DNA of 24,197 nt from a virus. Its lineage: Duplodnaviria; Heunggongvirae; Uroviricota; Caudoviricetes. A program made the position numbers and the translations under genes. Below the pieces are notes generated by a model, which worked only from the letters and a program-made list of their open reading frames with translations, did no database searches and was not told the DNA's origin. Location of the stretch: positions 1 through 24,197 of the IMG/VR virus record IMGVR_UViG_2619619133_000006; one strand, given 5' to 3'. Positions 3,322 through 23,750 of the stretch are shown piece by piece (position 1 is the first letter of the stretch; each line of letters opens with the position of its first letter).

Positions 3322-3322
3322 C

Positions 3323-6923: not shown

Positions 6924-6936
6924 ATTACCTATCAAT

Positions 6937-7159: not shown

Positions 7160-7456
7160 ATGTTAAAGCAGGTGTATGAAATGAAAGTCCAGATTTTAAA
7201 CAATAACTGTGAAGTCGTTTGGTCATACGACATAGCCGCCCCTGTAGATCAGAGCGGCGATAGCTGGACCAATGGGAAACATCAGATTATGGCTGGAGTT
7301 GTGTTCTCTTTACGCCGTGCTTTGGAACAGGCTGAAGTATTTCCATCAGACCCTGAATGGAAATGGCCTTTTTCTATTTGTCCAAATTCGGAGAGTACAT
7401 TTCAGAAAATTGGTCAGAAAGTCGCACTCGAAGAGCATCAGCCAACTGTTTCCTGA
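7160..7456 (+). CDS. Hypothetical protein (early-left region)
   Basis: 98-aa ORF downstream of the putative OL/pL; no recognisable motif. Confidence 0.3.
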   Translation: MLKQVYEMKVQILNNNCEVVWSYDIAAPVDQSGDSWTNGKHQIMAGVVFSLRRALEQAEVFPSDPEWKWPFSICPNSESTFQKIGQKVALEEHQPTVS

Positions 7457-7873
7457 TTTTTTCAGGTAACTCGTCGGCATCGCAGAAACAACAACGCTCG
7501 ATCATGTTGAAAGCCGATTCGTAGAACTGTTTCTGCTGAGTGTCGCTGAGACAGGAAAAGAGCGACGTTACGATGATTTTATTAATGCATTATCAAGTTC
7601 TTTTTCATCAAAAGTCATTTGATTTTCCTTTTATGTATACGGGCTTAAAAGGATACCACCGAGCCTGAAGTGGTGAAAAGACAGGCACATAACAGCTAAG
7701 TATTTTCAACCAAAGAGAATCCTTAGCGTTGTGGTGAATGCGGCTCAGCGCACGCGGGTTAAGGTTGAGGCTGACAGTCGACCTTCTGTAGATACCCACC
7801 CGCCTGGTGTGCAACCTTCGCCAGGCACCGGGAGGCACCCGGCACCACAACTTTATGCTGTGTGTAGTCCTGG

Positions 7874-7919
7874 CGGTACCAGTTTGTACCCTTGCTTCCG
7901 GCTGGTACCGTTCTTTTTA
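7874..7919 (+). terminator. Terminator-like hairpin (9-bp stem, large loop) followed by TTCTTTTT
   Basis: cggtaccag (7874-7882) pairs with ctggtaccg (7902-7910), then a T-rich run. The 19-nt loop makes this uncertain. Confidence 0.3.
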
Positions 7920-8007
7920 CAAAACAGAGAAGAGCATCACCGGACGACGGGCTCATAAACCAATCCATCCGGGCGGCTGCCACCGCAGGTGTTCTTCTCT
8001 GTTTTGT
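7919..8007. repeat. Long inverted repeat (15-bp perfect arms, 55-nt spacer) just upstream of the yfdP-like gene
   Basis: acaaaacagagaaga (7919-7933) is the exact reverse complement of tcttctctgttttgt (7993-8007). Confidence 0.6.
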
Positions 8008-8055
8008 GGAGAAACTAATCGGCCTTGCAGGGTCGATATGATGAGGAGCAGCAAA

Positions 8056-8418
8056 ATGGCTAGCGAACGCAGTACTGATGTGCAGGCATTTATCGGGGAG
8101 CTGGACGGCGGCGTATTTGAAACCAAAATCGGCGCAGTTCTCAGTGAAGTCGCTTCCGGTGTGATGAACACGAAAACCAAAGGTAAGGTCTCACTCAACC
8201 TGGAAATCGAACCATTTGATGAGAACCGTGTGAAAATCAAACACAAACTCTCATATGTTCGCCCGACTAACCGCGGGAAAATTTCCGAAGAAGACACCAC
8301 CGAAACGCCGATGTATGTCAATCGCGGTGGTCGCCTGACTATTCTGCAGGAAGACCAGGGACAGTTACTGACTCTTGCCGGTGAACCTGACGGAAAACTC
8401 CGCGCAGCAGGTCGTTAA
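8056..8418 (+). CDS. yfdP: YfdP-like prophage protein
   Basis: 120-aa product from the ATG at 8056 with AGGAG RBS; the track ORF 7807-8418 extends upstream through non-protein-like sequence. Length and position before the yfdQ-like gene match CPS-53 as recalled. Confidence 0.45.
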   Translation: MASERSTDVQAFIGELDGGVFETKIGAVLSEVASGVMNTKTKGKVSLNLEIEPFDENRVKIKHKLSYVRPTNRGKISEEDTTETPMYVNRGGRLTILQEDQGQLLTLAGEPDGKLRAAGR

Positions 8419-8483
8419 TATCGTTCTTAATTAACTGATTATTTATCTCATCACTGAATATCTTTATATAGTGAGGACTTATT

Positions 8484-9308
8484 ATGTCTCAGAACTTAGA
8501 CGCAACCGCAATTAATCAAATCCATGCCCTTATTTCTGCTCAGGGTGTTAATGAAATTATCAGTAAGATTGGTGCCGATGCTGTGGCATTGCCTGAGAAT
8601 TTCCGCATTCATGATCTGGAAAAATTTAATTTAAATCGCTTCCGTTTCCGTGGTGCGCTTTCCACTGCCAGCATCGATGACTTTACCCGTTATTCTAAAG
8701 ATCTTGCAGATGAAGGCACCCGCTGCTTTATCGATGCTGATAATATGCGTGCCGTCAGTGTGCTTAACCTGGGTACTATTGATGAACCAGGTCACGCAGA
8801 TAACACCGCCACACTCAAACTGAAAAAGACAGCACCGTTCTCTGCTCTGTTGACTGTTAACGGCGAGCGTAACTCCCAGAAGTCACTGGCAGAATGGATT
8901 GAAGACTGGGCCGACTATCTTGTGGGCTTTGATGCTAATGGTGACGCTATTCAGGCAACAAAAGCGGCTGCGGCTGTCCGTAAAATCACGATTGAAGCAA
9001 ACCATACCGCTGATTTTGAAGATAATGACTTCAGCGGCAAACGCTCCCTGATGGAGTCTGTCGAAGCGAAGACCAAAGACATTATGCCAGTGGCATTTGA
9101 ATTTAAATGCATTCCGTTTGAAGGTCTGAAAGAACGTCCGTTTAAATTACGCCTCAGCATTATCACTGGCGATCGTCCGGTACTGGTTCTGCGCATTATT
9201 CAGCTGGAGGCGGTGCAGGAAGAAATGGCTAACGAATTTCGTGATCTGCTTGTTGAGAAATTCAAGGACAGCAAAGTAGAAACCTTTATTGGTACTTTCA
9301 CCGCCTGA
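8484..9308 (+). CDS. yfdQ: YfdQ-like DUF2303 protein
   Basis: 274-aa ORF; same size and neighbourhood as CPS-53 yfdQ, from memory. Confidence 0.55.
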
Positions 9309-9320
9309 TTTCATTACTGC

Positions 9321-9342
9321 AAATGCCCCTGCGGGGGCATTT
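9321..9342 (+). other. Perfect 9-bp stem-loop between the yfdQ-like and yfdR-like genes
   Basis: aaatgcccc-tgcg-ggggcattt; no clear U-tract, so possibly an attenuator or mRNA-stability element rather than a terminator. Confidence 0.35.
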
Positions 9343-9435
9343 ATGGAAACGTAATTTACTCAATAATCGCCGGATGGTGAGGGATTCTTTTTACCAGAAT
9401 TCAGCGCGGTGCAGCGCATATACGTGGAGAACAAA

Positions 9436-9972
9436 ATGTCATTTATTAAAACTTTTTCCGGGAAGCATTTTTATTATGACAGGATAAATAAAGACGACAT
9501 CGATATTAACGATATCGCGGTTTCCCTTTCAAATATCTGTCGCTTTGCCGGTCATCTTTCGCACTTCTACAGCGTCGCCCAACATGCGGTTCTTTGCAGC
9601 CAGCTGGTGCCGCAGGAATTTGCTTTTGAAGCGTTAATGCATGATGCAACAGAAGCGTATTGCCAGGACATTCCCGCACCACTGAAACGCCTTCTTCCTG
9701 ACTATAAACAAATGGAAGAAAAAATAGACGCCGTAATCCGTGAGAAATACGGGTTACCCCCGGTTATGAGTACGCCCGTGAAATATGCCGATCTCATCAT
9801 GCTGGCAACCGAACGCCGCGATCTCGGGCTTGATGATGGCTCTTTCTGGCCTGTACTGGAAGGTATCCCGGCAACAGAGATGTTCAACGTGATTCCACTG
9901 GCACCGGGCCATGCCTACGGGATGTTTATGGAACGCTTTAACGAGTTATCGGAGTTACGCAAATGCGCATGA
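9436..9972 (+). CDS. yfdR: YfdR-like HD-domain phosphohydrolase (5'-deoxynucleotidase family)
   Basis: 178-aa product from the internal ATG with GGAGAA RBS; His/Asp-containing motifs (CRFAGHLSHFYSVAQH, LMHDATEAYCQDIP) are consistent with an HD-domain fold. Confidence 0.55.
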   Translation: MSFIKTFSGKHFYYDRINKDDIDINDIAVSLSNICRFAGHLSHFYSVAQHAVLCSQLVPQEFAFEALMHDATEAYCQDIPAPLKRLLPDYKQMEEKIDAVIREKYGLPPVMSTPVKYADLIMLATERRDLGLDDGSFWPVLEGIPATEMFNVIPLAPGHAYGMFMERFNELSELRKCA

Positions 9973-10325
9973 ATGTTTTCGAAATGGAAGGGTTTCTTCG
10001 TGGGAGATGTGTACCGCGAGATCTGAAAGTAAATGAAACAGATGCTGAATACCTGGTGCGTAAATTCGATGCGCTTGAAGCTAAATGTGCAGCACAGGAA
10101 AACAAAGTAATACCAGTGTCAACTGAACTGCCACCAGCAAATGAAAGTGTTTTGTTATTCGATGCTAACGGAGAAGGCTGGCTAATTGGCTGGCGTTCTC
10201 TCTGGTACACCTGGGGACAAAAAGAAACCGGAGAATGGCAGTGGACATTTCAGGTCGGGGACCTTGAAAACGTCAATATCACTCACTGGGCAGTAATGCC
10301 AAAAGCACCGGAGGCTGGAGCATAA
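9963..10325 (+). CDS. yfdS: YfdS-like protein
   Basis: 120-aa ORF overlapping the upstream stop; size and order as in yfdQRST. Confidence 0.45.
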   Translation: MRMNVFEMEGFLRGRCVPRDLKVNETDAEYLVRKFDALEAKCAAQENKVIPVSTELPPANESVLLFDANGEGWLIGWRSLWYTWGQKETGEWQWTFQVGDLENVNITHWAVMPKAPEAGA

Positions 10326-10630
10326 TGACCACTTTTACCGACAAAGAACTGATTAAAGAAATTAAAGAGCGTATCAGCAGCCTTGACGTGCGAGACGATA
10401 TTGAGCGCCGTGCTTATGAAATCGCACTCCTATCTCTGGAAGTAGAACCAGATGAACGCGAAGCTTATGAATTATTCATGGAAAAGCGTTTCGGTGACTT
10501 AGTAGATCGTCGGAGAGCAAAAAACGGCGATAACGAATACATGGCATGGGATATGACTCTCGGTTGGATCGTCTGGCAGCAACGAGCTGGTATCCATTTT
10601 TCAACAATGTCACAGCAAGAGGTGAAATAA
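10325..10630 (+). CDS. yfdT: YfdT-like protein
   Basis: 101-aa ORF; start overlaps the upstream stop (TAATG). Confidence 0.45.
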   Translation: MTTFTDKELIKEIKERISSLDVRDDIERRAYEIALLSLEVEPDEREAYELFMEKRFGDLVDRRRAKNGDNEYMAWDMTLGWIVWQQRAGIHFSTMSQQEVK

Positions 10631-10980
10631 TGGAGCCATACAGCCTCACACTCGATGAGGCCTGTCATTTTCTCAAGATATCCAGACCGACTGCCATTAA
10701 CTGGATACGCACAGGGCGTCTTCAGGCAACACGCAAAGATCCCACTAAGAATAAATCTCCTTACCTCACAACACGACAAGCCTGCATTGCGGCGCTTCAG
10801 TCTCCGCTGCATACTGTCCAGGTGAGCGCGGGTGATGGCATAACAGAGGAAAGAAAATGTCACTCTTCCGCAGAGGTGAAATATGGTACGCCAGTTTCAC
10901 ATTGCCGAACGGTAAAAGATTTAAACAGTCTCTTGGAACAAAGGACAAAAGGCAGGCGACAGAACTCCATGACAAGCTAA
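10630..10980 (+). CDS. Excisionase-like (Xis/AlpA-type HTH) protein; C-terminal extension overlaps int
   Basis: Starts at the ATG overlapping the upstream stop; N-terminus [33 protein letters not shown] is Xis-like and sits immediately upstream of int. The last ~40 codons overlap int and look non-protein-like. Confidence 0.4.
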
Positions 10981-12020
10981 AGGCTGAAGCATGGCGGGGC
11001 AGCAAACTTGGTGAAATACCTGATATAACGTTCGAGGAAGCGTGTGTCAGGTGGCTTGAAGAGAAAGCACATAAAAAATCACTGGACGATGACAAAAGCC
11101 GGATCGGATTCTGGCTTCAACATTTCGCAGGAATGCAACTAAGAGACATTACTGAATCAAAAATTTATTCAGCAATGCAGAAAATGACGAACCGGCGTCA
11201 TGAGGAAAACTGGAAACTCAGGGCAGAAGCATGCAGAAAAAAAGGGAAACCTGTTCCAGAATACACGCCAAAACCAGCGTCCGTTGCAACGAAGGCTACG
11301 CATCTTTCATTTATAAAGGCCCTACTAAGAGCCGCAGAGCGTGAATGGAAAATGCTGGATAAGGCACCAATTATTAAAGTGCCTCAACCAAAGAATAAAC
11401 GGATCCGCTGGCTGGAGCCCCATGAAGCACAAAGGCTGATTGATGAATGTCCGGAGCCATTAAAGTCTGTTGTTGAATTTGCACTGGCAACAGGCTTAAG
11501 ACGCTCGAACATCATCAACCTTGAATGGCAACAAATAGATATGCAGCGCCGGGTGGCATGGATAAACCCAGAAGAGAGTAAATCAAACCGCGCAATCGGC
11601 GTTGCGCTGAATGATACTGCATGTCGCGTTTTGAAAAAACAAATCGGGAATCATCACCGTTGGGTATTTGTGTACAAGGAAAGCTGTACCAAACCAGACG
11701 GAACGAAAGCGCCAACAGTAAGGAAGATGCGGTATGACGCAAACACAGCCTGGAAAGCGGCGCTGAGACGGGCTGGTATTGATGATTTCAGATTTCACGA
11801 CTTGAGACACACCTGGGCAAGTTGGCTGGTTCAAGCCGGAGTCCCGTTGTCAGTGTTACAGGAAATGGGAGGCTGGGAGTCTATCGAAATGGTTCGTCGA
11901 TATGCTCACCTTGCACCTAATCACCTTACCGAACACGCACGGCAAATAGACTCGATCCTGAACCCATCGGTCCCAAATTTGTCCCAGTCAAAAAATAAGG
12001 AAGGTACTAATGATGTGTAA
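10857..12020 (+). CDS. int: Tyrosine integrase, P22 Int / DLP12 IntD type
   Basis: 387-aa ORF; N-terminus [34 protein letters not shown] recalled as the P22/DLP12 integrase family; catalytic motifs [11 protein letters not shown] and MVRRYAHL; 10 bp from the tRNA-Thr core. Confidence 0.85.
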
Positions 12021-12048: not shown

Positions 12049-12196
12049 GGAGTAAAACACTCGATTAATCTCGTGTTAATGCCATCACCTACGACCATTA
12101 CTAATTGATTGAATCTTATAGAAAAAATCATCATTTTCTATGCATTACAATCAATTTTCACATTACAAACGCTCCGACACTTTAGCCGGGGAGTTT

Positions 12197-13474
12197 ATGA
12201 GATACAAGCCCAATCAATACATAATCTGTGATTCTTACGGTAACTACTATTTGAGGATCACGTTGCCTGTGTATATGCAGCCCTTTTTTGAAGGAAAAAG
12301 GACGTTTGTCAGGAGTCTGCATACAAGTAACCTTCGTGTTGCACGTAGAAAGCGTGATCAGATTGCAGATGAATACCATTGTTTACGGGAGAGTGTCGCC
12401 CCTGTAAACAGCACAATAGAGAACACGCTGGAACTGTTACGCAGTAAGGCTAAATACGCCAAAACAGCTACCAGAATGCAAGATACAGCGTCTTCGTGTC
12501 CGTCATTGCTTAAAATTCTTGAAATCTACCTGACAATTAACAGCACGAAGAAGAAGCCAGCCACTTTAGCTAAGGCAAGAAAAGCGGTAGAGATGTTTCT
12601 CTCCTACCGTAAAAAGCCTGATATTGCATTGCAAGATGTGAGCCGCACCACTGTTACAGGCTGGATTGAACACATGCAAAAAACCCTTTCACAACAATCA
12701 ATTGCAAATTATATCAGCCCAATGGCCCAGCTATGGGAGTTAGCTTCATCACGTTACCACGATGCGCCAGAAAGGGCGCTCTCCCCCTGGCGAGGGCATA
12801 GGCTTGATGTGGCACAAAGTAGAGAGAGCTACGAGGCATTTTCTAACAAAGAGCTATTGCAGGTGTTGCAAGTATTTTCCGGTAATTCAGCAGAAAACAA
12901 AGAAATGATGGCTTTGTGTCTTATCGGTGCTTATACAGGTATGCGGATCAATGAGATAGCAAGTCTCACAATAGACGATGTGAAAGAGATCGAAGGTGTG
13001 CTGTGTTTTGAAATCACACAGGGAAAAACGAAAGCTGCGGCACGTGTTGTGCCTGTACATAGCCTTATCACTCCGTTGGTGTTGTCGCTGCGTGAAAAGC
13101 CTCATAATGGCTTTTTGTTCTATCACGCCAGCATTACAGAGCGTGCTGATGGTAAACGTTCCACGTGGCACACGCAGAGATTTACAAGAGCTAAACGAAA
13201 GGCTTTAGGGGAAAAGGGAACAGAAAGGAAGGTGTTTCATTCTCTGAGACACGGAGTAGCACAGCTTCTTGATCGAAATCAAATTCCAGAAGACAGGATC
13301 GCCCTTCTCCTGGGCCATACACGCGGTAATACAGAGACATTCCGCACATATAGCAAGAATGCAGCTTCTCCAGTAGAGCTTAAAAACTATATTGAGCTTC
13401 TACGCTACCCTGAAATAGAGAAAGGCTTATCAATCAATAAAAAATCAAATTTAAGGCGTAAAACAACGCCATAG
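12197..13474 (+). CDS. Tyrosine integrase (second, unrelated family)
   Basis: Likely start at the internal ATG with GGGGAG RBS (track ORF begins at 12140). Catalytic motifs HSLRHGVAQLL and ETFRTYSKN; N-terminus NGNYYLRITLP typical of integrase arm domains. Confidence 0.75.
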   Translation: MRYKPNQYIICDSYGNYYLRITLPVYMQPFFEGKRTFVRSLHTSNLRVARRKRDQIADEYHCLRESVAPVNSTIENTLELLRSKAKYAKTATRMQDTASSCPSLLKILEIYLTINSTKKKPATLAKARKAVEMFLSYRKKPDIALQDVSRTTVTGWIEHMQKTLSQQSIANYISPMAQLWELASSRYHDAPERALSPWRGHRLDVAQSRESYEAFSNKELLQVLQVFSGNSAENKEMMALCLIGAYTGMRINEIASLTIDDVKEIEGVLCFEITQGKTKAAARVVPVHSLITPLVLSLREKPHNGFLFYHASITERADGKRSTWHTQRFTRAKRKALGEKGTERKVFHSLRHGVAQLLDRNQIPEDRIALLLGHTRGNTETFRTYSKNAASPVELKNYIELLRYPEIEKGLSINKKSNLRRKTTP

Positions 13475-13555: not shown

Positions 13556-14269
13556 CTATTCCTGTTTAAAGGCAGGAGTAATAGTGTCTTCACCTTCACT
13601 ACTAGATTTTTCAGTGTTAACACGTTTTTTCATATTAGCCCCGATGTTCTTAGATGGCTGTGTTTTGATAGCTACAGTGTTTACAGTGCCATAAGACACT
13701 AATCTTATTTGCTCAAAGCTAAGATCAAATACCAGAGATTCGCTTGCCTCTTCTGTGTATTCGATGCCTGTTAAAACAACGTTCTCAAAAGTTTTATTTT
13801 CTGTAACAAGAAGAAAAGGCTGTCTACTGTCCATAATCTGATTCAGGTAGTCGATAGCTAATGATCTTCTGTTCCCGTTCACCCCTGCACTCTTTAACAA
13901 GCCAGGATCGCTTTTAATCGGTGTTTCAGTGATCCTTCCCTTAAGAGAAAACTTATTGTTTTTAATTTGAACGTGATCAGACACAGTAGCACCATTCTCT
14001 ACGGGGTAGCTTGTGACATCTGCCGAACGTCTCACGTTCACATCATCTACACTGTCAAAGGCCAGTGCCATATAATTTTCATAAACGTCATTGCCAGAAG
14101 ATGCCAAGCCACTTGTAACAATAGCAAATCCATTCTCTCCTTTTGTTTTATTAGCTTTGCTATTTTCGTTTTTTGTAGAGTTTATATCTTGTTCTGCTTT
14201 GTAAACAGCCTGAACGTGTTGTTCTGGAGTATTTGCTGCACGTATGGTTAAAATTCCCGCCGTTGCCAT
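13556..14269 (-). CDS. Hypothetical protein (virion-protein-like composition)
   Basis: 237-aa ORF with AAGGAAA RBS; rich in N/S/T/G; last gene of the minus-strand cluster, facing the integrase. Confidence 0.4.
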   Translation of the reverse strand: MATAGILTIRAANTPEQHVQAVYKAEQDINSTKNENSKANKTKGENGFAIVTSGLASSGNDVYENYMALAFDSVDDVNVRRSADVTSYPVENGATVSDHVQIKNNKFSLKGRITETPIKSDPGLLKSAGVNGNRRSLAIDYLNQIMDSRQPFLLVTENKTFENVVLTGIEYTEEASESLVFDLSFEQIRLVSYGTVNTVAIKTQPSKNIGANMKKRVNTEKSSSEGEDTITPAFKQE

Positions 14270-14290
14270 AATAATAATTTCCTTGTAATG

Positions 14291-16132
14291 TTATGGCGGA
14301 AATTCCCCGCCGTTAGATTGTCCTGATAAGCTGGTTAATGTTAATGATTTCAAGAAGCTATCCCGACTTGCTCTCGCTGTAAAATCCACATAATCGCTTA
14401 ATCTTGATGTGTCACTATTAATAGTAAGCGGAACCTCTGTTACCACTTCAAATGTAGGATTCAGATTAAACACAGGAGATAAATTATAAGCCGGAGTTGT
14501 CATTGCAAGATTATTTAAAGCACCCTGTTTGAGATTGGTTATCGGTGCTTCATTGACTGACATTTTTACATCTGACACAGAAGATTTATCATCGAAAAGC
14601 AATCCCTTAATCGTGTTAAAGAGAGAATGACTATTATCAGGTGTAGTTGTTGCAGTGCCAGCGCCTTTATATTGATCAGGAACGAGATTAGAAAGATTCT
14701 GTTTCATTCCGTCATTGCTTAATGGCGGTGCATCACCTAAATTTTTCTGAATAGCCTCTGTCTTATCATCATTACGATTAAACCAGTTTACAATCTTCAT
14801 AATAGCTTCAAAGAGACTTCCTACAGCTTCTCCCAGCTTCGTAAAATACGGAGTGAGATTAGAAAGGTTTTTCATAAACTCTTCCGTTACTTTTGGATCG
14901 AGAGATTTCATAAAGCCATCAACAAAGGCGATCCCTTGTGAGTCAGAAAGCCCACTAAGTGCATTATTCAGTTCACGGAATTTAATAACGCTTTCCTGTT
15001 GTGCCTGTGTTACCCAGCGCCCTGATTCTCGTTGTTCTCGTGCTGATTGTTCCACTTCTTTAGCGGAGCGTGTCCAGTATTTAGAGGTGAGCATCAAATC
15101 ATCAGCCAGATCTTCCAGACGACTACCGATCTGCGCATCTGAATAGCCCTTTTTCACCATTCCATTGACAGCTTTACTAACCAGACCAGCCGGATTATCA
15201 GCAAAGTCTTTTAAATCTTTCTTAGTTAAGAAACCTTCGTTAAGTAAAGTATTAATACCTGAATCGCCGCCCTTCCATTCGCCTCGGCCTGTTTTCTTAT
15301 CAACTACATATTCAGCTTCATCATAAGATTTGGTTGCACGTTCACGCACATCTTTCATCTGATCCAGATACTTGCGACGACCTTGATCCCCCATCATTGA
15401 ATCAACGCCGTTTTTATACGCCCATTGTTCAATATTGTTCATCTGGTTAACATCTACACCGCCCAGCTTCGCACGGCTATACAATTCACCCAGCGTTTCA
15501 GCGTTAGCGAAGCTGTTAGCCATAAATTCAGAGGTTTTACTAACAGCCATCACGCCAGCAGCAGCCGTAGCGCCTCCAAATAACAGAGCGCCCATAGTGG
15601 CGGAATTCCCTGATCCTCCCTTAACGGGGGCTAATTGTGCTTTTCTGTTGCCATTAATTTTACGTTGTTGCTGTTGTAAGCGTTTCATCTGGCTATTCAT
15701 ACGTGCAAGCGAGATAGCGCCTTGTTCGTATTGTTTGGCTATCTCACGCGCCTGTGCAATAGCTTTGTATTGTTCCGCTACAGAGAGGCGGTGCATTGCA
15801 CTGATAGAGCTTGAAACATCAAGGAGCTTTAACTCTGCTTTCTCTTTACGTGCTGCTATTTGTGCCTGTTGCCTTGCCTGTGCTCTTGCTGCGGCAGCTT
15901 GTGCTTTTTGATTCTGTTTTTCGTTTTTCGCTTTTTGCTGGGTAATCTTGTCTACTTCACTTTGTGCTTTCTTATAGCCTTTAGTGACACTATCAAACCT
16001 TAATTTAGCTGGCTTGATATTTTCTGTGAATTCTTTTAGGCTTGTAATAGAGTCTTTCGCTTTTTTCAAGCTGTCTTTATCTACACTAAATGTTACTGTG
16101 TTCTTAATTTTAGAAGTGTTAATTTCTAACAT
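14291..16132 (-). CDS. Large hypothetical protein with N-terminal coiled-coil/low-complexity region (structural or ejection-protein-like)
   Basis: 613-aa ORF with GGGGA RBS; N-terminal KAKNEKQNQKAQAAAARAQARQQAQIAARKEKAELK; no catalytic motif recognised. Confidence 0.45.
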   Translation of the reverse strand: MLEINTSKIKNTVTFSVDKDSLKKAKDSITSLKEFTENIKPAKLRFDSVTKGYKKAQSEVDKITQQKAKNEKQNQKAQAAAARAQARQQAQIAARKEKAELKLLDVSSSISAMHRLSVAEQYKAIAQAREIAKQYEQGAISLARMNSQMKRLQQQQRKINGNRKAQLAPVKGGSGNSATMGALLFGGATAAAGVMAVSKTSEFMANSFANAETLGELYSRAKLGGVDVNQMNNIEQWAYKNGVDSMMGDQGRRKYLDQMKDVRERATKSYDEAEYVVDKKTGRGEWKGGDSGINTLLNEGFLTKKDLKDFADNPAGLVSKAVNGMVKKGYSDAQIGSRLEDLADDLMLTSKYWTRSAKEVEQSAREQRESGRWVTQAQQESVIKFRELNNALSGLSDSQGIAFVDGFMKSLDPKVTEEFMKNLSNLTPYFTKLGEAVGSLFEAIMKIVNWFNRNDDKTEAIQKNLGDAPPLSNDGMKQNLSNLVPDQYKGAGTATTTPDNSHSLFNTIKGLLFDDKSSVSDVKMSVNEAPITNLKQGALNNLAMTTPAYNLSPVFNLNPTFEVVTEVPLTINSDTSRLSDYVDFTARASRDSFLKSLTLTSLSGQSNGGEFPP

Positions 16133-16147
16133 TTAAAATCCCCCTTA

Positions 16148-16351
16148 TTAATCATTTTTACAACCTTCTTTACTTAAGAAATGGTGTAGAGCCTGATCAA
16201 TACTCTCGTTTAATCTGAACATACGGGCTTTTACTCCTTCATATGGAACATCTAAGAGAGAACATAGATATTTCAGATTTAACAAGCCTCTAGAATCATT
16301 AGCATCTAAATGTACGTGGACACCATTTTTTGATTTCAGAATCACTTCCAT
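16148..16351 (-). CDS. Small hypothetical protein
   Basis: 67-aa ORF with GAGAGGTGA RBS immediately after the A19 terminator. Confidence 0.35.
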   Translation of the reverse strand: MEVILKSKNGVHVHLDANDSRGLLNLKYLCSLLDVPYEGVKARMFRLNESIDQALHHFLSKEGCKND

Positions 16352-16373
16352 ATTTTAATCACCTCTCAAAATT

Positions 16374-16420
16374 AAAAAAAAAAAAAAAAAAAGGCGAAGC
16401 GTGAATACACGCCACGCCTC
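16374..16420 (-). terminator. Strong intrinsic terminator after the capsid-like gene, with a 19-nt homopolymeric T tract
   Basis: On the minus strand: hairpin ggcgtggcgtg-tatt-cacgcttcgcc (about 10 bp, one mismatch) followed by T19 (A19 on the plus strand, 16374-16392). Confidence 0.6.
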
Positions 16421-16436
16421 TATTACACGTTAAATA

Positions 16437-17465
16437 TTATTTAACAGTGATTTGAACGGAGAAGCCTACACCGTGGTTTACAACCATCTGGCTATTCTCT
16501 GTAACAACGTTAACAGCATCACCACGAGAAGATTCATAGCTATAGCTGTAAACCTCAGTAGGAGCGGCATTAATCAGTTCAAAGGTGCTGGAAGCAGCCC
16601 CGTAGATGTTCTGATATACGTTAGAGCCTTTAGCGAATTTAGGCACAGCTACAGCGTCTGCGGTCATATGTGCAAGGTGTAGCGGATCTACCAGTTTAAC
16701 AACATCAATGTTAGTTCCTGGAATAGTGAACGCTGTCACCCCTGGCAGCAGGTCACGACGCTGATACACAACGTTCCCTTCTTCCAGTGGGCTTACATAC
16801 TGGAATGCGTTTGCCATACCCGCAGAGAATCGAATTGCAGAGAAGGCTTCCGGCTTACAGAAAACAACAATACGCTCTACAGCAGCCGCCTGGCTTTGTG
16901 CTTTCTCGATAATGTCAGTAGCAATCTGATCAAATTCTTTAAAAATCTTCGTGGTGTCAGTGCTGGAAGCGTTCACAGTGGCTTTCATAGCTGATACGTT
17001 AAACAGCTTGCCCCACTCGATAAGAACATCATCAGTTTTAGGCGTGTAAGTTTTGCCAGAGAACAAAGAAGCCGCCAACACGCTCTCTTTAGTGCGCTGA
17101 TACGCTACGTGGTGTTTAGCAACATAGTCAGCATAGATATCAGTGAGTGTTTCCTGGAAATCAGTGCCAGGTTTACGTTTGCCTTGAACATCAGAAGGAC
17201 GGATCACATCTTCACGAAGAAAATACGGGATTTCAATCAGCCATTCTTTACCTTGTTCTCGCTTAGTAACGTTGTGTTCAGAAGAGAAACGAGAGGTTTC
17301 TTTGTTAAAGAGAGATTCGTTGCTTTCGACAAGCTGGGAAACAGCTACTTTATGAGAACTAACGCCCACCGGATCAGTGAAGTCGAGGGTAGAGAGCAGA
17401 TAGTTTCTAGTGCTATGAGCCTGGAAAAGCGGAGCTAAATCAACGTAATCATTACCTAGAATCAT
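16437..17465 (-). CDS. Putative major capsid protein (local similarity to T7 gp10-type capsid protein)
   Basis: 342-aa ORF. VERIVVFCKPEAFSAIRFSAGMANAFQYVSPLEEGNVVYQRRDLLPGVTAFTIPGT parallels T7 gp10A ADRVFYCDPDSYSAILAALMPNAANYAALIDPEKGSIRNVMGFEVVEVPHLT as recalled. Size, strong terminator after it and operon position fit a highly expressed structural gene. Confidence 0.45.
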   Translation of the reverse strand: MILGNDYVDLAPLFQAHSTRNYLLSTLDFTDPVGVSSHKVAVSQLVESNESLFNKETSRFSSEHNVTKREQGKEWLIEIPYFLREDVIRPSDVQGKRKPGTDFQETLTDIYADYVAKHHVAYQRTKESVLAASLFSGKTYTPKTDDVLIEWGKLFNVSAMKATVNASSTDTTKIFKEFDQIATDIIEKAQSQAAAVERIVVFCKPEAFSAIRFSAGMANAFQYVSPLEEGNVVYQRRDLLPGVTAFTIPGTNIDVVKLVDPLHLAHMTADAVAVPKFAKGSNVYQNIYGAASSTFELINAAPTEVYSYSYESSRGDAVNVVTENSQMVVNHGVGFSVQITVK

Positions 17466-19557: not shown

Positions 19558-20247
19558 TTAAAATGGAATATCAAAGTCTTCATATACTTTGGGATGTTTC
19601 TTAGCAAAATATGCCTCAATACCATTTGGTAGCTTTAACCTGTGCTTATAGGCTAACGATGTTGCAAATTCTATAAAGGATGCCCCTCCTGTTCTGGTAT
19701 TCTTCTGCGTGATAATAAGAGAGGCAAAATTCTCTAACACATCCTCCTCATTATCATTAGCTACCTTTTCATTTGATGAAACAGGTGTTTCTTCCATCTC
19801 CCAGGGTAAAGGCGTATCCCAATCATCAAGAACATCAAAAGAAGGCTGTTTATGGCCTTTAGGTTGTTCCTGTGCTTCTTCTGCCTCAGAAAGATCAGAG
19901 AGTGATGATTCTCCTGGGGGAGTAATATGTGCATCTGTGAGAGGGAGAGCATTGTAAATCAAAGATGAAATATACGGATCAGGATGTGGGGATGTTTCTA
20001 ATAATCCCATCTCTTTAAGATCGTTTATCTTACGTTTAATTGTTGACGCTGAAGACTTAAAAATCTTAGCTAATGTTTCGTGACTTTCATAACAATTAAG
20101 GTTGTTTTCCTGATAACTAAGGAATCGAAAATAAAGCACAATATGTAATAGTTCTAAATCTTTTCCTTGAGGGAATTTATCAGAATAAATCTTTGATACA
20201 TTATCAAACGTGTCATAGTGTTTTGTAAAAGTTAGTTGATTAATCAT
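19558..20247 (-). CDS. Putative DNA-binding / replication-initiator-like protein (N-terminal winged HTH, acidic linker)
   Basis: 229-aa ORF; LELLHIVLYFRFLSYQENNLNCYESHETLAKIFKSSASTIKRKINDLKEMGLLE resembles the HTH of phage/plasmid initiators; lies near the iteron region. Confidence 0.35.
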   Translation of the reverse strand: MINQLTFTKHYDTFDNVSKIYSDKFPQGKDLELLHIVLYFRFLSYQENNLNCYESHETLAKIFKSSASTIKRKINDLKEMGLLETSPHPDPYISSLIYNALPLTDAHITPPGESSLSDLSEAEEAQEQPKGHKQPSFDVLDDWDTPLPWEMEETPVSSNEKVANDNEEDVLENFASLIITQKNTRTGGASFIEFATSLAYKHRLKLPNGIEAYFAKKHPKVYEDFDIPF

Positions 20248-20298: not shown

Positions 20299-20466
20299 TC
20301 ACTTACCCTTTTTTTGTTTGATGTTCTCTGCTGCTTCAGTAATGATTTCTAACATCAAATCACTGACCATAATTTGCCTTTTCTTGGCTTCAGCAAATAA
20401 AACCTTGAAGATTTCAGGGTCAACGTGTAGGTAAGTGCGCGGAATTGGTTTCTTAGTTTCGCTCAT
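20299..20466 (-). CDS. Small protein (55 aa), possible DNA-binding regulator
   Basis: Below the ORF-track size cutoff. ATG at 20466-20464 with AGGAGA RBS; MSETKKPIPRTYLHVDPEIFKVLFAEAKKRQIMVSDLMLEIITEAAENIKQKKGK; a beta-strand-then-helix pattern is compatible with ribbon-helix-helix, which is uncertain. Confidence 0.3.
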   Translation of the reverse strand: MSETKKPIPRTYLHVDPEIFKVLFAEAKKRQIMVSDLMLEIITEAAENIKQKKGK

Positions 20467-20485: not shown

Positions 20486-20674
20486 TTACTCTGTTTCAGA
20501 TTCTTTTTCATTTTTTCTTAATTCATCAATAATCTTGAGTGCTTCATTGAAGCAAGCTGCTCGCTCTGGATAACCTCGACTCCTTGCCATATTACGATTC
20601 ATTACTATTTGATGGCGTGTAAGCTCACCTTTTTTAAATGCCTGGATGACGTGCTCAGATGTAAACCATTTCAT
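20486..20674 (-). CDS. Small hypothetical protein (first gene of the minus-strand operon)
   Basis: 62-aa ORF directly downstream of the candidate promoter at about 20.8 kb. Confidence 0.3.
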   Translation of the reverse strand: MKWFTSEHVIQAFKKGELTRHQIVMNRNMARSRGYPERAACFNEALKIIDELRKNEKESETE

Positions 20675-20784
20675 AAAAAACTCCTTATTCAGTTAAAAGA
20701 AAAAACACCTTGCAAGCCTGACGGCTTCAAAGTGCATTGATTTTGATTATTTAGAGAAGAATGTTTTCTGTCCCTCTAATACCT

Positions 20785-20813
20785 ATTATTACATATAAAG
20801 AAACATTTGTCAA
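20785..20813 (-). promoter_or_regulatory. Candidate sigma70 promoter facing the 62-aa gene
   Basis: Minus strand TTGACA (20813-20808), 17-bp spacer, AATAAT (20790-20785). Confidence 0.3.
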
Positions 20814-20905
20814 TACCCTTTCCGAAAAAAATCGATCTTTTTCATGCACTTACATTTTTTCTTAGCTATTCGTGCTCTTCTGTGTAGTGCTATTCTTCCT
20901 TATTG

Positions 20906-20935
20906 TCTAAAACGCTCTAAAACGCTCTAAAACGC
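20906..20935. repeat. Three exact tandem copies of 10-bp TCTAAAACGC
   Basis: Copies at 20906-20915, 20916-20925, 20926-20935. Confidence 0.7.
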
Positions 20936-21349
20936 GTTATAACGAGATTTTGATAAAAGCAATACATTCCCTTATGTAATGGCTGTTTAGCTCGCCAGAG
21001 GCTTATTTAAGGGGCTTATTTTGTATTTGTTAGGTATATGAAAAGGTAATGGTAGATATAAGATAGAGAGTCACTTTATAAAACGCTATGTAAAGCCCTG
21101 TAGTGAGCTTATATGTGTAGGCAATGCGTTTCCATTCCCTACCCTGCTTAATGCTGTTAGAGAAGCATTTAGACCCCTTATTTTTAATTAATTAAAGTAT
21201 CCTCTATACATTCCTGTTATGAAACACCTCTGAATCCTTCATAAAACACATTATGACGCAAAGAACACTTTTCTAAGGTGATTCCCTTCCTGAATGCTGT
21301 TTCTTGCGTCAGAGAGCTACAGAGAGCTTATAAAGCTATTATTAATAAT

Positions 21350-21410
21350 AAAGTAGATAAAGTAAGATAAGTAAGTAAGATAACTAAGATAGATAAGATT
21401 AATAAGATCA
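21350..21410. repeat. AT-rich GATAA / TAAGATAA repeat cluster
   Basis: aagtagataaagtaagataagtaagtaagataactaagatagataagattaataagatcag; multiple GATAA units. Confidence 0.5.
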
Positions 21411-21450
21411 GAATTCTCTTTCGGTGTCGCCTCTGGCTTTTCCACCGAAA

Positions 21451-21617
21451 ACAATTACACGACTACAGAATGTAGGAAGTGGAATTGTATTGAGGCTTAG
21501 TGAAATTACACGAGGAAAGCAGAGTGTAATTGAGCTTTAGCCGCTCTCTCTTCGAGTAATTACACAACTACAGAGAATAACGAGAGTTATTAAGTGTAGG
21601 AAGTGGAATTAAGAGGT
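21451..21617. repeat. Dispersed direct repeats (AATTACAC-N-ACTACAGA and 16-bp TGTAGGAAGTGGAATT, two copies each)
   Basis: TGTAGGAAGTGGAATT at 21471-21486 and 21595-21610 (exact); AATTACAC(G/A)ACTACAGA at about 21453 and 21559; the second copy carries a palindromic insert aataacgagagttatt. Confidence 0.6.
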
Positions 21618-21649
21618 AGAGAGAGTTACACATAAGCAATCAGTATGAT

Positions 21650-21835
21650 TGGTTAGGTGATTACTCTTCTGCGCACAGCGCAATAGTATTTCTTCGTGGG
21701 CGTTATCGCCAACGAAGTTACACGAAGAAAGTAACGCTTTGCTTTCGGTGTGAGCGGAACGGGCCAGCCACGAAGCCCGAAAGGTAGCGGAGTAAGGCTG
21801 CTTGCCAGGGAGTGAAGCTAACGCCGGAAGGCAAA
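21650..21835. ncRNA. GC-rich structured island inside the AT-rich origin-like region; candidate regulatory RNA
   Basis: Hairpins cttcgtgggcg-ttat-cgccaacgaag (21683-21708) and ctttcgg...ccgaaag (21739-21781). The only long ORF here (21609-21842, minus) translates to non-protein-like sequence. Confidence 0.25.
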
Positions 21836-21840
21836 AGATC

Positions 21841-21852
21841 ATATATATATAT
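21841..21852. repeat. (AT)6 dinucleotide repeat; candidate DNA-unwinding element
   Basis: atatatatatat immediately upstream of the 22-bp iterons. Confidence 0.4.
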
Positions 21853-21924
21853 AGATATAAAGAATATTATTATTATGATCTAATTAATAATCTAATATAG
21901 TTTTATTAATAGTCTTATTGTAGT

Positions 21925-22026
21925 TCACAGTGACCTACCCCCTAGCTCACTATGACCTACCCCCTAGCTCACTATGACCTACCCCCTAGCTCATAGTGAA
22001 CTACCCCCTAGGTCACAGTGACCTAT
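21925..22026. repeat. Iteron array A: 4.5 tandem copies of 22-bp TCACTATGACCTACCCCCTAGC
   Basis: Copies at 21925, 21947, 21969, 21991 (variant) and partial at 22013; directly abutting, no spacers. Confidence 0.8.
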
Positions 22027-22082
22027 ATAGTATAAAGAATATTATTTATATTATTTAATTATAGTATTTAATTATAGTATTG

Positions 22083-22184
22083 GTGGAACTCATTTCCTAG
22101 GTAGGTAGGAACTCATTTCCTAAGTAGGTAGGAAACCACTTCCTAGGTTACTTCCTAAATAGATCGGAAATCATTTCCTAGGTG
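22083..22184. repeat. Iteron array B: 4-5 copies of about 23-bp GGAACTCATTTCCTAGGTAG-like unit
   Basis: Copies at about 22085, 22108, 22131, 22166; each contains internal GGAA...TTCC dyad symmetry. Confidence 0.75.
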
Positions 22185-22198
22185 TTATTTATACTTAT

Positions 22199-22262
22199 CG
22201 GGTATCAGTTTTGATAGGGGTATCAGACTTGATAGGGGTAACAGAATTTTGTTAGGGTAAAA
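22199..22262. repeat. Iteron array C: 3-4 copies of about 18-bp TTGATAGGGGTATCAGA
   Basis: Copies at 22211-22227 and 22229-22245, plus partial copies on both sides. Confidence 0.7.
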
Positions 22263-22304
22263 ATCTCTTTAAAAGTTAAGATTAACAGAATTCTGTGGGG
22301 GTGG

Positions 22305-22341
22305 TTCACTATGACCTACCCCTAGTTCACTGTGAGCTACC
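22305..22341. repeat. Two further array-A-type iterons about 280 bp from the main array
   Basis: ttcactatgacctacccctag (22305-22325) and ttcactgtgagctacc (22326-22341). Confidence 0.65.
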
Positions 22342-22470
22342 GTTACATTCAATCATCTTCCGATGTGTAATATCGTTACATTCAATAATTAGTCTATGTA
22401 ACATATCGTTACTACCAACTTTCTTACAGAGAGCATTTCAGATAGCTGAATGTAACCTCTCGTTACATCC
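22340..22470. repeat. Repeat family CGTTACAT(T)C (4 direct copies plus 1 inverted)
   Basis: Copies at about 22340, 22372, 22406 and 22460; inverted copy tgaatgtaacc at 22447. Confidence 0.6.
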
Positions 22471-22936
22471 ATTTGTCACATAGCACTCTGTGTAATGTCT
22501 TTCTATGTGTGTGCCATAATCCCCCTATATTCCCTGTGTAAATCATAGAATATCCCTAACTTATTCCTGTGTAATTCCCTACTAAAAAATCCAATGAAAA
22601 ATGGCTTCAAAGTGCAATGTTAGCTTTCTTCACTTTTACATCACTTTCGCAAAGCCTTGTGTAATGCGGTTTACAGAGCACCATCAGAAATTGTTGGCTA
22701 AAAATTGTTCTGCTTGTTTCTTAATGAGTTTTCTTGTTTGTGCAAATTTTAAAATTTATTTTGTTTTTACAGCCTTATTTCGTGTAATGCGTGGCATAGC
22801 AAGCCCTTTTCTTGTGTTGTCAAGACATTTGGCAACGTTCAAACATCTGTTTAGAAATGCCAAATTATTGATCTAACAAATAAACCTGTATAAACAGAAC
22901 ACCATTTAATCTATTCCCCTGTGTATCCATTAGGCA

Positions 22937-23045
22937 TACCAAATGAATACAGCTAAATCGTGTAATATTCCGTACCCATAAGGCTTGAAACAGACCAAAT
23001 GAATACGATATACTCATTTGCATTGAAGTAGTGCCAAATCGATAC
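22937..23045. promoter_or_regulatory. Candidate recombinase-binding (res-like) site upstream of the serine recombinase gene
   Basis: Direct repeats ACCAAATGAATAC (22937-22949, 22997-23009) and related GCCAAATCGATAC (about 23031), 15-120 bp upstream of the recombinase start. Confidence 0.3.
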
Positions 23046-23059
23046 ATTAAGAGGATTTT

Positions 23060-23599
23060 ATGAGCAATATCGGTTATAAGCGTGTGAGCACTGTAGATCA
23101 GAACACTGATCGCCAGCTTGCAGGAGTAACGCTTGATAAAGTCTTTGAAGATAAGCTGTCAGGTAAAGACACTAACCGTCCAGGCTTACAAGCGTGTTTA
23201 TCCTATCTGAGAGAAGGCGACACCTTACACGTGCACTCTCTCGATCGTTTAGGGCGTAACACCTTAGACATTCTTGCCTTAGTGGAACAACTTAATAATC
23301 GTGGTGTAATTGTTCGCTTTCACAAAGAAGGGATCATTGCAGACATTACAAGCGCGATGGGAAAGATGATGCTTACGATGTTGTCGGCAGTTGCAACGTG
23401 TGAACGTGAACTGATGTTAGAGCGTAAACGAGAAGCGCAAGCCGTCAATCCTACAAAGCGTGGTAAAGGTAAAGCAGTGGATAGGGAAGGTATAAAGAAA
23501 GCCCTTTCTGATGGCCTGTCAGTGCGTAAAACCGCCGAGAGCTTTAATGTTGCTCCTTCAACGGTACAGCGAATTAAGAAGGAAGAAGAGGAGGCGTAA
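23060..23599 (+). CDS. Small serine recombinase (resolvase/invertase family)
   Basis: 179-aa ORF; catalytic N-terminus MSNIGYKRVSTVDQNTDRQ with Ser in the RVST motif; aligns in pattern with Hin/Gin/Tn3 resolvase; C-terminal HTH LSVRKTAESFNVAPSTVQRI. Confidence 0.85.
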   Translation: MSNIGYKRVSTVDQNTDRQLAGVTLDKVFEDKLSGKDTNRPGLQACLSYLREGDTLHVHSLDRLGRNTLDILALVEQLNNRGVIVRFHKEGIIADITSAMGKMMLTMLSAVATCERELMLERKREAQAVNPTKRGKGKAVDREGIKKALSDGLSVRKTAESFNVAPSTVQRIKKEEEEA

Positions 23600-23710
23600 T
23601 GCCTCCTTGATATTTGGGGATTCTGGATTTTCCAGATCGGGGGGCGCTGAAAATCGCGTTAAGCACCTCTCGCAATCTAGCCATAAGGGAAGGAATATAG
23701 GTATTTAGAT

Positions 23711-23750
23711 GTATTTATAGCTATTTATGGCTATTTATGGCTATTTATTT
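23711..23750. repeat. Four to five tandem 10-bp repeats (G/C)TATTTAT(G/A)G
   Basis: gtatttatag, ctatttatgg, ctatttatgg, ctatttattt in tandem; 10-bp phasing. Confidence 0.65.

Follow-up and report, generated by a model that had tools for sequence, protein, structure and literature searches.

The subject of this analysis is a gene-free intergenic region of 2385 bp (positions 20675-23059) in a stretch of DNA of 24,197 nucleotides, hereafter the window, which is the IMG/VR record IMGVR_UViG_2619619133_000006 of a Caudoviricetes virus. The region sits in an integrated element of about 12 kb, which extends from position 12140 to the end of the window. It is bounded on the left by the start of the gene for a 62-aa protein, followed leftward by genes for a 55-aa and a 229-aa protein, and on the right by the start, at 23060, of the gene for a 179-aa serine recombinase. 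The region is probably the cis-acting control centre of a satellite-like integrative element, with four working parts: outward-facing promoters, a central modular iteron origin, a res-like site cluster over the recombinase promoter, and a folded element of about 440 nt beside the origin. The central arrays of the region are most likely iteron origins, because the type of array switches with the N-terminal domain of the 229-aa protein, because an AT-rich tract precedes each array, and because the protein resembles replication initiators. The positions of the features are collected in Table 1.

An earlier note on this DNA had described a non-coding, repeat-rich region without a credible open reading frame (ORF), and both points were borne out. 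Thirteen rows of period 9 or more were returned for the region by Tandem Repeats Finder (TRF), against a mean of 0.33 and a maximum of 2 in 200 dinucleotide shuffles of the region. Of nine other stretches of 2385 nt in the window, eight gave 0-4 rows, and the one starting at 19081, which runs into the region, gave 6 for that reason. Inside the region there are four ORFs of 60-91 aa. None of these had a match in Pfam or PHROG, and the two longest were intact in 2 of 47 and 1 of 45 loci, with stops or frameshifts in most relatives, so that the region is regarded as non-coding. The repeat families listed in the note were all present where it had placed them or nearby, with the 22-bp array amounting to five units plus two distal ones. 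Three families had escaped it, namely the 13-mer TTAATTATAGTAT, a 17-bp direct repeat and the motif of the res-like cluster. The paired 16-mers and the left-hand copies of GTGTAAT, which it had counted as separate families, are the stems of duplicated hairpins in one 440-nt fold.

The central part of the region consists of AT-rich tracts and of tandem arrays of dyad-symmetric units, which are of four types designated X (22 bp), Y (23 bp), Z (about 18 bp) and W. In ten loci that were compared, this part starts after the conserved sequence AAGATCATATATATAG and continues with an AT-rich tract and then a dyad array. The first AT-rich tract precedes the 22-bp array in 11 of the 11 relatives examined whose protein is of the same N-terminal type (N1, see below) as in the window. 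The layout in the window is compound: an X cassette (AT-rich tract and five X units) is followed by three copies of the 13-mer and four Y units, about 2.5 Z units, two distal X units and two W dyads. The same leader, TATAAAGAATATTATT, occurs in both AT-rich tracts, and the 13-mer is present in 2 to 5 copies among relatives. All 13 matches to the 22-bp unit motif in the window fall in the region. Relatives of type N1 often have the X cassette alone and relatives of type N2 the second cassette alone, and therefore the window appears to carry its own origin cassette together with that of a rival. The compound layout was also found in loci L001, L002, L005 and L033, and it is probably present in the 232 Escherichia coli genomes in which at least 80% of the region query was covered. 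Loci of types N2 and N3 keep one X unit at the junction where the distal X units lie in the window. No DnaA box (TTWTNCACA) was found in the region, and two occur elsewhere in the window.

The relationship between array and protein was assessed in a comparative set collected by means of the 229-aa protein (8 E. coli, 18 IMG/VR and 54 metagenome loci). Clustering of the N-terminal domains at 70% identity resulted in four types: N1 with 32 loci, among them the window, N2 with 23, N3 with 14 and N4 with 8. Loci that agreed in the types of N domain, C domain, 55-aa protein, 62-aa protein and recombinase, and in having or lacking the folded element, were placed in one background, and 52 typed loci gave 34 distinct backgrounds. 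The matching array was present in 32 of these (32 of the 33 with a normal region). N1 was accompanied by X (2-6 units in 11 of 12 backgrounds), N2 by Y (3-5 units in 10 of 11, the eleventh, L069, being without a normal region), N3 by Z (4-5 units in 6 of 6) and N4 by W (3-4 dyads in 4 of 4). No tandem X array stood directly behind the AT-rich tract in any type other than N1, and three or more W dyads were seen in no type other than N4. Since Y pairs with N2 and the protein of the window is N1, the Y array is non-cognate in the window; a locus may or may not have such non-cognate arrays in addition to its own. About 1.7 kb separates the coding sequence of the N domain from the array, and the 55-aa and 62-aa genes, the left arm of the region and the C-terminal domain are exchanged independently. 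As these intervening modules recombine freely, the pairing of array and domain is better explained by function than by linkage. The comparison supports the prediction that the 229-aa protein binds to the central arrays.

The 229-aa protein resembles the O-type initiators and replisome organizers of phages and groups with them. Its PHROG matches were to replication-initiator, O-like and DnaD-like families (E 6e-9 to 6e-3), and its winged helix matched the O-like initiator of the prophage next to the element in a BLASTP comparison (E = 7e-6). In an AlphaFold model the N-terminal domain had a pLDDT of 78-88 and was followed by an acidic disordered linker of 55 residues (pLDDT <50) and a small helical C-terminal domain. 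The named best matches of this model in the BFVD viral-structure library were replisome organizers, replication initiators and replication protein O. RepA_N N-terminal structures (4pql, 4pt7, 5kbj) were among generic winged-helix matches in the PDB, with E about 0.02-0.06. A sequence search of solved structures gave no match, and no match to the Rep_3, pi or TrfA families or to RepA_N (PF06970) was obtained in Pfam. The protein is modular among relatives: a variable N-terminal domain is joined through a conserved linker, ALPLTDAHITPPGESSL, to a C-terminal domain, of which there are several kinds. The ending is [DS][IL][PT]F in all variants and most often DFDIPF, with the terminal P and F invariant across the types. 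The C-terminal motif of E. coli SSB, DDDIPF, is a docking peptide for many replication and repair proteins (PMC5872125).

In the proposed mechanism, each module of the origin would combine an AT-rich unwinding tract with tandem dyad-symmetric sites, and dimers of the 229-aa protein would bind these sites through the N-terminal winged helix. The acidic linker, the helical C-terminal domain and the tip (...DFDIPF-COOH) would then recruit replication proteins of the host or a helper. From the likeness to SSB we infer that the tip of the iteron-bound protein recruits an SSB partner (PriA, DnaG or the chi subunit being candidates), which would explain how replication could start without a helicase or primase of the element and without a DnaA box. 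The cognate X cassette would stand before a complete Y cassette of another specificity, plus partial Z and W sets, and with a second cassette in the window the region could therefore be fired or titrated by the initiators of related co-resident elements. The leftward promoter would drive the 62-aa, 55-aa and 229-aa genes and then the capsid-like, tape-measure-like and Dit-like genes, and the rightward promoter would drive the recombinase gene. The res-like cluster would serve to resolve multimers of the excised, replicating element and to autoregulate the recombinase gene, and the folded element, on the + strand, may be a new structured RNA or a single-strand priming signal.

A more specific joint reading is put forward only tentatively, as a possibility that is less likely than the general one. 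It combines a helicase-less initiator whose C-terminus would mimic the SSB tail and so tether SSB-interacting proteins such as PriA, DnaG or chi to the origin, plug-in cassettes of four specificities, and the folded element as a new RNA class or priming signal. Under this joint reading the iteron-bound origin would be independent of DnaA, and the elements are likely to be satellites of large virulent myoviruses. Many elements, the present one among them, have a rival's complete cassette beside their own, which would let co-resident relatives cross-fire or titrate initiators, and the folded element would be needed for the replication mode or for helper interference.

Several observations weigh against the general model of a control centre with an iteron origin. 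The Pfam HTH_36 score of the 229-aa protein (24.9 bits) is just below the cut-off of 25, and the AlphaFold model is only moderate (mean pLDDT 66, from a 15-sequence alignment). The fold search of the PDB returned generic winged-helix matches, many of the MarR or ArsR type, among which initiators were not separable. The SSB-like tip comprises six residues, and its likeness could reflect convergence on another partner. The route of helicase loading is a conjecture, because there are no DnaA boxes in the region and no helicase or primase is encoded by the element. There is one real mismatch in the covariation, locus L041, which has an N1 protein, a Z array and a single X unit. The coupling was counted as distinct module combinations, not as events on a tree, and the loci are not phylogenetically independent. 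Moreover, the covariation is a coupling of protein and array whose purpose it does not specify, and operator arrays would show the same. As for the folded element, no compensatory base changes were present in the alignment of its homologues, because it hardly varies, and a scan for promoters and terminators gave no convincing one for it.

In one alternative, the region is an operator or immunity region without any part in replication. The 229-aa protein would then be a transcriptional regulator, and the arrays would be operator banks that set the expression of the two outward-facing transcription units, as in a switch between lysis and lysogeny or for satellite induction. RefSeq names the protein 'transcriptional regulator' or 'helix-turn-helix domain-containing protein', repressors of the MarR and ArsR type are frequent among its best fold matches in the PDB, the arrays lie between outward-facing promoters, and covariation with a DNA-binding domain fits any cognate pair of protein and site. 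This alternative is nevertheless considered unlikely. The arrays are 1.1-1.5 kb away from the leftward promoter and 0.7-1.1 kb away from the recombinase promoter, and the tract of 87-90% AT tied to each array, in one case with a 13-mer in three copies, has the anatomy of an origin. Among protein families and viral folds, the protein matches replication initiators and replisome organizers, and an SSB-like tip would have no obvious use in a repressor. Iteron initiators commonly also autoregulate, so that the two roles are compatible.

The folded element lies beside the proposed origin and is predicted to form a long closing helix that encloses about ten hairpins. Its minimum free energy was -161.4 kcal/mol, with z = -9.4 for the + strand and z = -6.0 for the - strand. 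Sliding-window z-scores reached -7.4 and the outstanding fold signal was confined to this element, the low z-scores of the arrays coming from their palindromic units. In 32 distinct homologues, which are 89-98% identical, most alignment columns are invariant. The consensus contains 139 pairs; 7 of 7 one-sided changes keep the pair on the + strand, and ten invariant G-U pairs are C-A mismatches on the opposite strand. Of 51 loci, 35 have the element, and its identity in bins of 50 nt is 91-99.7%, compared with 76-86% in the 62-aa and 55-aa genes across the same loci. No counterpart was found in the loci without it, where z went down to about -5 at most, and this over repeat arrays alone. A search of Rfam 15 with the whole window and with the region alone (E <=10) gave no match in the region better than E = 1 or near a gathering score. 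A stable regulatory RNA, a pre-primer-like transcript into the origin and a single-strand priming signal are the candidate functions. A role as a CsrA sponge was rejected, as the roughly 9 GGA motifs counted by hand in the 440 nt are near the expectation from composition.

The strength and conservation of this fold, which exceeds that of the flanking genes, and the G-U-preserving substitutions favouring the + strand might indicate that the region is mainly an RNA locus, with one or more long non-coding RNAs, from the folded element and derived from the repeats, which would act in regulation of the element or in interference with a helper phage; the repeats would then function as RNA. As an account of the whole region this is improbable. 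The outstanding fold signal covers one part only, the arrays covary with a DNA-binding domain, and the 16 of 51 loci without the folded element keep the arrays and the overall layout; the lack of compensatory changes, of an Rfam family and of a clear promoter or terminator counts against it as well. For the 440-nt part, an RNA reading can be accommodated within the model of a control centre.

At the right-hand end, the recombinase is a small serine recombinase of the resolvase/invertase type. It matched Pfam Resolvase (PF00239, E = 1e-33), followed by a C-terminal helix-turn-helix (HTH_7/HTH_38), and phrog_125 (E = 1e-54). Among known structures it matched gamma-delta resolvase (E = 2.4e-29, residues 2-175) and Tn3 resolvase (E = 2.7e-28), and a chain designated DNA-invertase (4m6f, E = 2.7e-26) was about as close. 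The five motif copies of the res-like cluster (two exact, three with 2-3 mismatches) form both diverging and converging pairs. The 130 bp before the recombinase gene switch with the type of recombinase. In loci whose recombinase is only 62-63% identical, the upstream 200 nt are replaced wholesale and contain their own five-fold ATCACTACAC-like motif. Because a small serine recombinase adjoins its own site cluster, which changes with the recombinase type, an autoregulated res-like site for resolving multimers of the excised element is plausible. An invertible switch between the 22-bp array and the inverted distal units was rejected, as the asymmetric X and Z units were on the same strand in 52 of 52 typed loci; ten collinear loci also oppose it, and no inverted-query search of all E. 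coli genomes was made.

The earlier note had proposed a plasmid-type origin combined with a partition locus. The origin part of this proposal is supported by the covariation of array and N domain, the 87-90% AT tracts and the initiator-like protein. A partition locus, in which the arrays would be centromere repeats bound by a partition adaptor, is very improbable. Tandem arrays of short dyads do resemble centromeres of the parC/parS type, and the nearby 55-aa protein, on our reading of its sequence, possibly has a ribbon-helix-helix fold. However, no ParA, ParM, TubZ-type NTPase or ParB was found among the proteins of the element (Pfam, PHROGs, NCBIfam), and the covariation with the initiator-like protein already accounts for the arrays. 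Each of the four array types follows the winged-helix N domain and neither the 55-aa protein, which has only two types among relatives (98-100% or 42-46% identity) and is missing from all N2 loci, nor the 62-aa protein, for which tblastn gave 70 loci with 54-98% identity. Neither small protein had a family match in the same three databases. The element is maintained by chromosomal integration, and the region showed no similarity to any partition region of the plasmids in PLSDB.

Descent from a plasmid or phage-plasmid replicon was ruled out by the lack of DNA relatives. A search of 72,556 plasmids (PLSDB) and 50,697 phages found no relatives of the region beyond a 37-nt match to a repeat of Felixounavirus; of two exceptions in the plasmid set, one record is really a 4.9-Mb E. 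coli chromosome and the other is an F-type plasmid with an inserted copy of the element. Next to no credence can be given to a degenerated pseudogene full of repeats or a junk spacer that remained after prophage decay, which the note had named as a refuting outcome and to which the interrupted 60-91-aa ORFs and the insertion sequences in some copies might point, since the non-coding blocks are 93-99.7% identical against 76-86% in the genes, the ordered modular anatomy is common to about 50 loci, the ORFs have no protein-family signal and the repeat density is far above chance.

The element that carries the region has a gene content that suggests a phage satellite of large virulent myoviruses. 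It begins with a tyrosine integrase gene, and genes for a Dit-like, a tape-measure-like and a capsid-like protein span 13556-17465. The tape-measure-like protein (613 aa) is 29-37% identical to those of myoviruses of about 145-154 kb (Phapecoctavirus and Justusliebigvirus among the names listed), and the capsid-like protein, of the Phage_cap_E type, is 22-26% identical to the capsids of other myoviruses. Several small ORFs, the genes of the 229-aa, 55-aa and 62-aa proteins, the non-coding region and the recombinase gene follow in this order. None of the ten element proteins scanned matched a family of terminases, portals, helicases or primases, and no P-like or DnaC-like protein was found in the element with Pfam and PHROG. 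The satellite-like reading is suggested by the presence of capsid-like, tape-measure-like and Dit-like genes without a terminase or portal match. No paper describing the element was found in literature searches, and it is apparently undescribed.

The region matched 718 of 5426 complete E. coli genomes (about 13%), in up to four places per genome and with mosaic coverage; strains of O26, O103 and O111 were among the best matches. Three loci only were obtained from 100,044 species genomes. The relatives are all from Escherichia, Shigella and Citrobacter, except for one contig labelled as a Bacillota metagenome-assembled genome. In every relative with enough flank, the order is recombinase gene, 1.5-2.4 kb of non-coding DNA, 62-aa gene, in some cases the 55-aa gene, and winged-helix gene. 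In E. coli strain 47-1826 the same element of about 12.8 kb lies between a pao/LysR remnant and the tRNA-Thr gene next to proA. Other copies lie at tRNA-Gly, near thiM or in the F-type plasmid, and they differ in their integrases and cargo (GmrSD and HNH genes). The thiM-site relatives (L006 7980-9551; L007 7458-8183) keep the initiator-like gene, the non-coding region and the recombinase gene, have no capsid and tail genes, and have GmrSD or HNH nuclease genes beside their integrase. The replication module would therefore be common to different kinds of island, some with defence cargo.

The closest analogue is the non-coding region of the Vibrio cholerae satellite PLE, which is 2.7 kb long, has four repeat families and contains the origin (Barth et al., NAR 2020, PMC7145576). 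Semi-palindromic iterons of that origin are bound by a winged-helix RepA_N initiator (PMC7145576). The two systems have in common a small integrated element (satellite-like here), a gene-free region of more than 2 kb with several repeat families and semi-palindromic iterons (putative ones here), genes transcribed away from this region, an initiator (a candidate here) in which a winged-helix N-terminal part is joined to a C-terminal domain without a known partner, and the lack of a helicase or primase. They differ in that there is no sequence relationship and in that the candidate initiator here is HTH_36/O-like and not a Pfam RepA_N protein. Interchangeable cassettes of four specificities, of which one element can have two or more, an SSB-like initiator tip, and a small serine recombinase with its own site cluster flanking the region are features of the present element, which may depend on a helper. 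The earlier note had called such repeats unexpected inside an integrated element. This premise was wrong, because integrated satellites carry origins that fire after excision, as PLE illustrates.

Two older paradigms are also instructive. The lambda O protein binds iterons through an N-terminal winged helix and recruits the helicase-loading machinery through its C-terminal part. The lambda origin likewise has about four dyad-symmetric iterons beside an AT-rich tract and a winged-helix initiator of common PHROG families. In contrast, the iterons of lambdoid phages lie inside the O gene and those here in non-coding DNA at a distance of about 1.7 kb from the initiator-like gene; the element has no P-like helicase loader, and the C-terminal domain and tail are unrelated. 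Iteron theta plasmids (pSC101, R6K, RK2, P1, F) resemble the region in having tandem iterons of 17-23 bp, an AT-rich element with 13-mers and a nearby initiator gene, and additional sets of iterons could act in incompatibility or in copy control. They differ from it in that no two-winged-helix initiator of the Rep_3, pi or TrfA type, no DnaA boxes and no partition genes occur here, in the lack of DNA similarity to PLSDB plasmids and in the chromosomal integration of the element. The recombinase end is similar to the res sites of Tn3 and gamma-delta in the 179-aa serine recombinase, in the site-like repeats in about 125 bp upstream over the promoter, and in the covariation of sites and recombinase. 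It differs from them in that the three-subsite geometry of res could not be made out among the five motif copies, there is no transposase, and a DNA-invertase chain is equally similar; despite this similarity to invertases, the cognate arrays had the same orientation in 52 of 52 typed loci.

Table 1. Features of the window, with predicted roles, and blocks of conservation in and beside the region among 51 loci.
Feature	Position	Strand	Description
Prophage O-like initiator gene	4327-4944	-	phrog_391, E = 3e-81; HTH_36, 44 bits; same PHROG families as the 229-aa protein
Iterons inside prophage O-like gene	4572-4635		15-bp x4.3 (30-bp x2.1) tandem array; classical lambda-type origin
Prophage CI-like repressor gene	6191-6883		
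Element tyrosine integrase gene	12140-13474		
Dit-like tail protein gene	13556-14269		
229-aa initiator-like protein gene	19558-20247	-	N-terminal winged helix (type N1), disordered acidic linker, helical C-terminal domain; end ...YEDFDIPF (C-terminus at 19558-19581)
55-aa protein gene	20299-20466	-	from ORF list
62-aa protein gene	20486-20674	-	first gene of leftward operon; in nearly all relatives
Conservation block 1	20500-21050		45-50 of 51 loci align, 70-95% identity; 62-aa gene, leftward promoter, 10-bp repeat
17-bp direct repeat, left copy	20723-20739	+	GGCTTCAAAGTGCATTG; 94% identity to right copy, 1880 bp apart
Leftward-operon promoter	20785-20813	-	strong, sigma-70-like; TTGACA, 17 nt, TG-AATAAT; 11/12 matches and extended -10
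10-bp repeat	20906-20944	+	TCTAAAACGC x3 (exact units 20906-20935) and degenerate fourth; TRF score 60
Conservation block 2	21050-21880		32-37 of 51 loci align, 90-99.7% identity; left arm and folded element
GATAA-rich cluster	21348-21408	+	directly 5' of folded element; TRF periods 9, 13, 22; copy pattern varies among relatives
Folded element, ~440 nt	21405-21845	+	closing helix, about 21417-21437 with 21800-21835
Paired exact 16-mers	21471 and 21595		TGTAGGAAGTGGAATT; stems of duplicated hairpins
AT-rich tract 1	21836-21920		87.1% AT; (AT)6 at 21841-21853, leader at 21856, 12-mer x3.6 (TRF)
Conservation block 3	21900-22450		8-23 of 51 loci align, identity variable; arrays
X array	21921-22025		five 22-bp units TAGYTCACWRTGACCTA (21921, 21943, 21965, 21987, 22009; tandem dyads) and CCCCC; TRF score 146; candidate cognate iterons of N1 protein
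AT-rich tract 2	22026-22084		89.8% AT; leader at 22031, then 13-mer x3 (x3.1 at 22042-22081); TRF score 66
Y array	22085-22190		four units (22085, 22108, 22131, 22166; spacing 23, 23, 35 bp), GGAA-N5-TTCC dyad; TRF scores 100 and 99
Z array	22200-22257		~2.5 units 18 bp apart (22203, 22221, degenerate third), TATCA-N4-TGATA dyad; TRF score 70
Distal X units	22297-22344		two, at 22302 and 22323; 91% complementary; inverted relative to X array when flanking G5/C5 run is counted
W remnants	22341-22471		two full GTAAC-N5-GTTAC dyads (22398, 22452) and two half-sites; CGTTAC x4 at 22341-22466
Right-arm GTGTAAT motifs	22365-22966	+	six copies, consensus YYnGTGTAAT
Conservation block 4	22550-22700		47-49 of 51 loci align, 87-91% identity; right-hand core
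Shared right-hand core	22563-22705		holds right 17-bp copy; aligns even where both flanks differ
17-bp direct repeat, right copy	22603-22619		94% identity to left copy
Conservation block 5	22700-22950		24-30 of 51 loci align, 90-98% identity; right arm
Res-like cluster	22923-23045		five CCAAATGAATAC-like motifs, both orientations, within 123 bp; overlaps recombinase promoter
Recombinase promoter-like site	22985-23014	+	TTGAAA, 18 nt, TATACT; 10/12 matches
179-aa recombinase gene	23060-23599	+	small serine recombinase

Outside the central arrays, the leftward promoter lies in the part of the region that is common to 50 of 51 loci, and the 10-bp repeat, which is present in 1-3 copies in relatives, is about 95-125 bp upstream of the -35 of this promoter. 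The tandem repeat CTAAAACGCT of this site (window 20906-20944; L003 3001-3037; L083/L084) recurs in two phages: the Felixounavirus phage radambza has it in a repeat_region between genes, and the Pectobacterium phage My1 (122 kb) in its left terminal repeat. It may serve as a common binding site of some factor from host or phage. The left part of the region and the Felixounavirus intergenic region have 26 9-mers in common against 9.8 expected, but 10 of these come from the 10-bp repeat and the signal is weak. The two copies of the 17-bp repeat GGCTTCAAAGTGCAWTG bracket the whole core of the region and are both present in nearly all relatives with a complete region. The inner quasi-palindrome of this repeat is CAAAGTGCATTG, and the copies could be an operator pair for a small protein or a pair of + strand promoters.

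The motif GTGTAAY has 17 matches in the window, of which 12 are in the region, against 5.4 expected for the whole window, and none of 100 shuffles reached 17. Its left-hand copies are on the - strand in 5 of 6 cases and its right-hand copies on the + strand in 6 of 6. An interpretation of GTGTAAT as Tus/Ter-like or DnaA-like sites was rejected, since the core does not match the consensus sequences and the left copies are hairpin stems. Downstream of the recombinase gene, toward the end of the element, the 10-bp repeat TATAGCTATT is present in 5.3 tandem copies (23696-23748); it was also seen in L002, L012 and L025. A run of A19 (T19 on the sense strand of the element genes) lies at 16374-16392, between the capsid gene and a 67-aa gene. 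Within 160 nt downstream of the capsid gene, the longest run of T ranged from 5 to 19 among 29 relatives, most often 7-8, and that of the window is the longest; a slippage-prone control of expression is possible.

The remainder of the window, positions 1-12020, is the end of a lambdoid prophage with CII-like, KilA-N and DUF968 proteins and its own integrase. Two tyrosine integrase genes, at 10857-12020 and 12140-13474, are on the same strand and 120 bp apart, and the prophage and the small element seem to occupy a single site as tandem insertions. In the prophage part, a match to the gammaproteobacterial sRNA family STnc100 (RF02076) was observed at 7706-7920 on the + strand over the full length of the model. 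It scored 40.7 bits (E = 7.9e-6), which is less than the gathering score of 47.

The features of most note are the interchangeable stacked origin cassettes, the SSB-tail-like tip of the initiator and the conserved 440-nt fold. If the interpretation is true, four matched pairs of initiator and iterons on a shared backbone would form a system for the study of how origin specificity evolves and of competition or cooperation between elements in one cell. With a mimic of the SSB tail on its origin-binding protein, a minimal replicon would have a simple means of attracting the replisome of the host, and the 440-nt element, which is more conserved than the adjacent genes, would be a candidate new structured RNA in the best-studied bacterium. 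A possible E. coli satellite of virulent myoviruses would also bear on phage therapy and on studies of phage resistance.

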